Shown here piece after piece: positions 44,723 through 45,289 of a DNA stretch of 64,000 nucleotides. The notes beneath the pieces were generated by a model. The model was not told the DNA's origin, did no database searches, and was given only the letters and a program-made list of their open reading frames with translations. A program made the translations under genes and the position numbers. Each line of letters begins with the position of its first letter. The stretch's first letter is position 1. The stretch lies in assembly GCF_054482595.1 (NCBI RefSeq), contig NZ_CM137008.1; one strand, 5' to 3'.

Positions 44723-45289
44723 GTGACCACTGTGACCATACAGCAGGCCTTTGAGGCCTGTCAGACGAACAAAAATACCTGGCTGAAACGTAAAGCCGAA
44801 CTGGCAGACCTTGAACGGGAATACCGTGAACAGCTCCTTGCCGGTGACGAACAAATCCCGCGCAGAATGCAGGATTTGCGCGACAATTTCGACGTGAAAA
44901 AATGGGAGATTAATCAGGCCGCCGGTCGTTATATCCGCTCACATGAGGAAGTGCAGCACATCAGCATCCGCAACCGGCTCCATGACTTTATGCAGTAGCA
45001 CGGCGCGGAGCTGGCCGCCACGCTGGCACCTGAGCTGATGGGGTATAACGAACAGCTTCCCGCAGTAAAACAGAGCGCCATGCAGCACTCGGTTGATTAT
45101 CTGCGTGAAGCCCTGTCGGTATGGCTGGCTGCAGGTGAAAAAATTAATTATTCCGCGCAGGACAGCGATATTTTAACGGCCATCGGATTCAGGCCTGATG
45201 CGGCCTCGCGGGATGATAATCGCCAGAAATTCACCCCGGCACAGAACCTGATTTACACCCGCCGACGTGCAGAACTGGCCGCACGGTAG
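44723..45289 (+). pseudogene. psu: P4 Psu-like (polarity suppression/capsid decoration) gene interrupted by an in-frame TAG
   Basis: ORFs 44723-44998 and 45038-45289 share one frame and are separated only by an amber codon at 44996-44998; combined length about 188 codons. Confidence 0.55.

Follow-up and report, generated by a model that had tools for sequence, protein, structure and literature searches.

The experimentally characterised counterpart of the gene described here is Psu of the satellite P4 (NP_042044.1; PDB 3RX6, 8PEU), which belongs to the same family, is of the same length and occupies the same place in its element, following delta and preceding the terminator and cos. In P4 Psu, helix alpha2 comprises residues 45-91, with Gln91 as its last residue, and helix alpha7 (residues 170-186) lies in the cleft formed by two C-terminal domains of Rho, above the nucleotide pocket (PMC11718236, from which all helix boundaries used below are taken). 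Rho is contacted by the alpha7 residues P171, A172, Q173 and K/R180, and the single substitutions K180A and F169V each abolish function (PMC11718236). R43 and D49 of P4 Psu are also Rho contacts, and mutating them weakens Rho binding. It has further been speculated that Psu, acting in cis, is a built-in anti-terminator needed to express the defence genes of the hotspot (PMC11718236).

The P4-like satellites have been defined by seven core components, int, psu, delta, sid, alpA, epsilon and alpha, of which no more than two may be missing, and psu pseudogenes have been reported in such sets but are rare, accounting for 8% of the psu-less variants (PMC8628076). The order psu-cos-hotspot-int is that of the P4 defence hotspot (PMC9122126). 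Defective P4-like regions with mobility pseudogenes beside conserved defence genes likewise form a described class, for which domestication was left open (bioRxiv 10.64898/2026.02.27.708500). The psu locus considered here, at 44723-45289 (+ strand) of a 64-kb stretch of Escherichia coli chromosomal DNA (the window), is located in a 6.9-kb P4-like satellite remnant (42614-49477) flanked by exact 28-bp direct repeats beside ssrA. It is very probable that psu was recently inactivated inside this remnant, which is itself immobilised.

The psu reading frame and its amber codon

The psu frame extends from a GTG start codon at 44723 to a TAG at 45287-45289 and comprises 188 codons followed by the terminal stop. 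The 188 are inclusive of an in-frame amber codon at 44996-44998, around which the sequence reads directly as GAC TTT ATG CAG TAG CAC GGC. A Shine-Dalgarno sequence (AGGAGA) is found 7 nt upstream of the GTG, and both the ribosome binding site and the start codon are intact. The mechanical list of open reading frames divides this frame into a 91-aa ORF (44723-44998) and an 83-aa ORF (45038-45289). An earlier note on this DNA had described these as one frame of about 188 codons split only by the TAG at 44996-44998, had tentatively assigned it to psu by similarity and had proposed aligning the joined translation with P4 Psu. Both the coordinates and the size were right, and the identity is borne out by this alignment and by a full-length match to the Pfam Psu family. 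When a single unknown residue is placed at the amber position, residues 3-188 of the joined translation are collinear with residues 3-187 of P4 Psu (PDB 3rx6) in a single HMMER domain (E 2.8e-73; 63% amino acid identity), and the Rho-Psu cryo-EM entries 8peu, 8pew, 8pex and 8pey are also matched. PF07455, searched with the amber read as Gln, aligns over positions 2-182 of its 182 (E 5.3e-88). No model matching Psu was found in NCBIfam, and the assignment was made with Pfam and the PDB instead. The alternative that the two ORFs are unrelated neighbouring genes which merely share a frame is refuted by the single domain and the Pfam match that span both of them, and can be given practically no credence. 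Psu homology also extends over codons 93-105, which separate the TAG from the ATG of the 83-aa ORF, and the two ORFs are therefore parts of a single gene rather than neighbours by chance. The uninterrupted frame of approximately 190 aa expected of a psu gene is broken by the TAG at codon 92, and the locus is accordingly classed as a psu pseudogene, as it also is by PGAP. The Rho-contact residues of alpha7 are retained in the frame as P172, A173, Q174 and R181, all of which lie 3' of the stop and would stay untranslated.

The amber codon corresponds to Gln91 of P4 Psu, for which the aligned codon in P4 DNA is CAG. Gln is likewise found at this position in five intact close relatives, which share 95-98% amino acid identity with the window psu. 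The intact psu of one of these, from E. coli HKUOPY1, differs from that of the window at 14 of 567 nt, one of the differences being a C at 44996. Judged from these alignments, the amber is a single C-to-T nonsense transition at 44996, converting CAG to TAG at Gln92. A Dcm (CCWGG) hotspot was considered as a cause of the nonsense transition in psu or in int and was ruled out by the sequence context.

Of 5426 complete E. coli genomes, 15 match a 59-nt probe that has the TAG at its centre with 100% identity, while the nine next-closest genomes show one or two mismatches to it. The TAG carriers were isolated from humans, chickens, pigs, ducks, the environment and water, and different groups sequenced them. 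The occurrence of the same TAG in 15 independently assembled genomes shows that it is not a read or assembly error in the window. That psu is truly intact and the TAG a sequencing artefact would require the same wrong base in complete assemblies from different laboratories and platforms, and the adjacent int and alpha lesions are common to the carriers too; the chance of such an error is vanishingly small. In five carriers (THO-010, NZ_AP022540.1; Santai; APEC37; SM107; and GF66.1) PGAP describes it as "phage polarity suppression protein, internal stop", and psu, int and alpha bear pseudogene flags in every carrier inspected. The window differs from its sisters by a private substitution at 44888 (+ strand), where it has a T in place of an A. 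The A is shared by every intact relative and by the five sister genomes for which a base-by-base comparison was made. This substitution changes the conserved Ile56 of psu to Phe, and among the complete E. coli genomes of the collection none matches the window there at 100% identity.

Loss of the satellite core and retention of the cargo

The remnant is bounded on the left by the attL-like 28-bp repeat GTGTACCTAAACGTGTACCAATTTTCTC (42614-42641), which is an exact self-match to the attR-like repeat on the right (49450-49477). An intact relative, L003, has this repeat pair as well, there flanking a satellite of ~10 kb. The right repeat of the window is located approximately 105 bp past the 3' end of the tmRNA gene ssrA (49583-49945, - strand), a chromosomal landmark identified with ARAGORN and Rfam (RF00023, 292 bits). 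An Rfam scan of 42000-50200 returned nothing besides the tmRNA. Downstream of psu, a hairpin with a 14-bp stem in the RNA fold followed by a U-run resembles an intrinsic terminator (45330-45362, + strand; z -2.85 for the 91-nt stretch) and is conserved with P4, aligning at P4 11.5 kb. The counterpart of the cos cohesive end, GGCGTGGCGGGGAGAGCAT (45461-45479, + strand), is identical at 16 of 19 positions to the P4 left end GGCGAGGCGGGGAAAGCAC in an alignment run across the P4 genome ends, and P2-like phages match the window at 45328-45487. A P2/P4-type cos thus adjoins psu, and the cargo (45691-48203) is found between cos and int. Fewer than five of the seven core genes are present, with sid, an alpA-like HTH gene and the epsilon-region genes absent, and the element is therefore a remnant and not a satellite by the published definition (PMC8628076).

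Directly to the left of the remnant lies a gene for a YpjA/EhaD-type autotransporter adhesin (37679-42382; 1567 aa in the ORF list), which is preceded in sister genomes by a partial recombinase pseudogene, hinting at older island remnants on that side. In APEC37 (7760-9711 of L005) and GF66.1 (7759-9710 of L007), an RloB-family protein and an AAA ATPase or ATP/GTP-binding protein are encoded just past the int remnant, where the window has ssrA, an arrangement suggestive of a later tandem insertion of another element at this site.

The remnant carries an internal deletion. The alpha primase-helicase gene is represented by its C-terminal 222 codons only (43990-44658, - strand), without an N-terminus or start codon. 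It matches NCBIfam TIGR01613 (primase_Cterm) partially (E 2e-16), is 86% identical to P4 alpha at the DNA level, aligns with the final 223 codons of the gene for the 777-aa primase in the intact relative L003 and is annotated by PGAP as "incomplete, missing N-terminus". At 44652-44658 a short microhomology (..GTCACC / GCCACC..) marks the junction at which alpha codon ~555 is fused to a delta-like tail. The BLAST segments against L003 stop at 3500 and restart at 8001, with a 7-nt overlap in the window, and the junction motif would be consistent with a microhomology-mediated deletion. The tail itself is what is left of a delta-like activator gene of the STY4826 family, namely its final ~56 nt (44652-44707, + strand), and aligns to positions 8001-8056 of L003, the end of a CDS at 7817-8056. 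In comparison with the complete ~10-kb HKUOPY1 satellite at the same chromosomal site, approximately 4.5 kb are missing, including the N-terminal ~555 codons of alpha, DUF5375, a small ORF, an Icd-like gene, an HTH regulator, a sid-like capsid gene and nearly all of delta. The deletion also took the upstream region of psu, which on the P4 map carries sid, delta and the late promoter. A crude consensus search of 43900-45800 on the + strand, which yields a weak negative, found no sigma-70-like promoter upstream of psu. With the late-promoter region and the delta activator gone and no promoter-like site present, psu is probably not transcribed.

The P4-type tyrosine integrase is also a pseudogene (48206-49399, - strand). 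The opal stop proposed in the earlier note is real: TGA at 49271-49273 occupies codon 43, where an intact relative has TGG (Trp), and PGAP reports an "internal stop". Apart from this codon the 397-codon frame is open, and with the stop repaired the translation matches NCBIfam PRK09692 (E 2e-174). A single lineage carries the psu C-to-T amber, the 4.5-kb deletion and the TGG-to-TGA change in int. As a satellite, the remnant is incapable of excision, replication and packaging.

What such a remnant would still offer its host is its defence cargo, namely a Septu-like ATPase and HNH pair and an AbaSI-family nuclease. The PtuA-like AAA ATPase (PDC-M01A; 45691-47352, + strand; WP_021557103.1) is intact and is recognised by the PADLOC models PDC-M01A (E 1e-99) and PtuA (E 1e-73); its ORF is open from a TTG at 45670, with the PGAP start at 45691. 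The adjacent HNH nuclease gene (PDC-M01B, distantly PtuB-like; 47358-48203, + strand; WP_021557102.1) is also intact, matching PDC-M01B (E 3e-37) and PtuB (E 2e-8). The ATPase scores far below the NCBIfam PtuA equivalog cut-off (40 versus 500 bits), and the PDC-M01 pair is therefore Septu-like and not canonical Septu, with its anti-phage role predicted. The third gene, coding for an AbaSI-family (mREase_II) methyl-directed restriction endonuclease (42693-43574, - strand; WP_021557107.1), is intact and matches PADLOC mREase_II over its full length (E 4e-122). It is located between the left repeat and the alpha 3' end (42642-43659), a region for which L003 has only ~90 nt, and this locus appears to be an additional site for satellite cargo, apart from the psu-int hotspot. 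Searches for a progenitor with the psu-int cargo (45481-48205) and the AbaSI-family region (42642-43700), each against the 5426 complete E. coli genomes, returned only the same 15 defective elements for both modules and never an intact satellite. No intact parent element was found in this collection, and these 15 elements give no relative order for the three lesions.

The 15 carriers differ by at most four changes across 7.2 kb. Eight variable sites are found among six sequences over this length, six of them in the cargo and two in pseudogene DNA. The cargo changes include one frameshift and at least three amino acid changes, with changes of the latter kind in SM107 and GF66.1. The frameshift is a 1-nt insertion near 45899 by which the ATPase gene of APEC37 is split; the same assembly also has a frameshifted ypjA, and an assembly indel is possible for the ATPase insertion. 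There is no sign of purifying selection on the cargo, a comparison which has no power with only eight variable sites among six sequences. The earlier note had viewed the element as a decaying or domesticated satellite whose cargo is nevertheless intact. Decay holds, and is more extensive than had been noted given the 4.5-kb deletion, and the cargo is intact in the window. Domestication is not demonstrated by the carrier comparison, in which divergence is too low to support it and changes also accumulate in the cargo of the sisters.

Residual function of psu

The frame beyond the amber codon contains no second lesion. The C-terminal half is 98% identical to the intact relatives, with a single residue different, and retains both the P-A-Q motif and the Arg at the equivalent of position 180. 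Together with an intact ribosome binding site and start codon, this open frame argues against a dead psu, as a suppressor or read-through would give full-length protein. The conservation of the C-terminal half and the at most four changes in 7.2 kb imply that the lesion is young and are not evidence of use. A low level of full-length Psu, produced by a suppressor tRNA or a near-cognate tRNA-Gln reading the amber, would fit the open and nearly identical frame with its conserved Rho-contact residues. Were tRNA-Gln to read UAG as a near-cognate codon, codon 92 would regain its wild-type residue. The low divergence is, however, accounted for by recency, as pseudogene DNA is just as unchanged as the rest, and the late-promoter region and delta activator of psu have been deleted. 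Nor did the amber suppressor raised in the earlier note find support, as none of the seven tRNA/tmRNA genes identified by ARAGORN in the 64-kb window has a CTA anticodon, and the supE allele of glnV, found in 155 of 5426 genomes, was confined among the 60 matches listed to K-12-type laboratory strains, with no island carrier among them. Read-through giving a low level of full-length Psu is very improbable.

A different outcome would be that the interrupted gene yields two working products, the 91-aa N-terminal coiled coil and/or an 83-aa C-terminal fragment initiated at the ATG at 45038. The N-terminal ORF does keep its Shine-Dalgarno sequence and start codon, and peptides of the Psu C-terminal domain can inhibit Rho, according to work cited in PMC11718236. 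The ATG at 45038 is, however, preceded by no convincing Shine-Dalgarno sequence, with just a GAG three bases upstream, and the Psu-homologous codons 93-105 would go untranslated. The N-terminal fragment would lack alpha7 and, in this clade, also the residues aligned to P4 R43 and D49, no promoter was found, and the window has since gained a nonsynonymous change at a conserved Ile within this fragment. Working products of this kind are, on these grounds, very improbable. It is similarly hard to credit that the 91-residue coiled coil is still made and has a function of its own, the amber then being an adaptive truncation and not decay. Were it functional, it might be a weak Rho modulator, or else a decoy that disturbs the Psu or Sid protein of P4-like satellites entering the cell.

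Recent inactivation of psu remains the favoured explanation. Translation from the GTG would halt after residue 91 and yield only the alpha1-alpha2 coiled coil, without alpha3-alpha7. As a product without alpha7 it should not clamp Rho, a prediction derived from the structure and function of P4 Psu. The change of Ile56 to Phe that the window has gained since would likewise count for a dead psu.

Comparison with P4 and related elements

The remnant shows the same pattern as the elements of the described defective class, in which decayed core and mobility genes accompany intact defence genes (bioRxiv 10.64898/2026.02.27.708500). The defence genes of those elements had near-identical copies in intact satellites, while those of the window have none among the 5426 complete E. 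coli genomes. With this class already described and the psu lesion already known as an ordinary nonsense pseudogene flagged in RefSeq, the locus carries little weight as a discovery. It does indicate that such loci will escape surveys in which P4 defence hotspots are located by their annotated Psu, as was done in PMC9122126. Carriers such as THO-010 are also natural psu-null, int-null strains with a co-directional defence operon, and they lend themselves to asking if anti-termination by Psu is required by hotspot defence genes in this orientation. If the cargo still works in this natural psu-null lineage, this would argue against the proposed requirement for Psu in cis (PMC11718236).

The nearest complete counterpart is the satellite of E. 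coli HKUOPY1 (psu WP_058663597.1), which is found at ssrA with the same site, the same 28-bp repeat and the same cos region, and in which psu is intact. Further intact relatives are ETEC1732, KMi029, NCTC10973 and GF3-3, and it is these four and HKUOPY1 that share the 95-98% amino acid identity to the window psu given above. Their elements are complete, encoding a primase, DUF5375, an Icd-like protein, an HTH protein, a sid-like capsid protein, a delta-like protein, psu and int. The HKUOPY1 cargo differs from that of the window, consisting of an AAA ATPase and a DUF4435 protein that are PARIS-like by domain. The int genes of the window and HKUOPY1 share only 84% DNA identity, with 126 synonymous versus 34 nonsynonymous codon differences, and the HKUOPY1 satellite is therefore a cousin and not the parent of the remnant, the elements being mosaic.

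The same locus is represented by RefSeq/PGAP pseudogenes such as JLH08_RS05785 (THO-010) and CH99_RS15280 (O157:H16 Santai), which are 99.8-99.9% identical and share the TAG; the window psu differs from them by one private base, at 44888. Relative to P4 Psu, the window psu has the amber in place of Gln at codon 92, a one-residue insertion near residue 35 and a GTG start codon. Throughout the clade to which it belongs, in the intact members as well, Gln is encoded at psu codons 44 and 50 (44850-44875), which are aligned with R43 and D49 of P4 Psu, while the alpha7 P-A-Q motif and the basic residue at position 180 are conserved between P4 Psu and the window psu.
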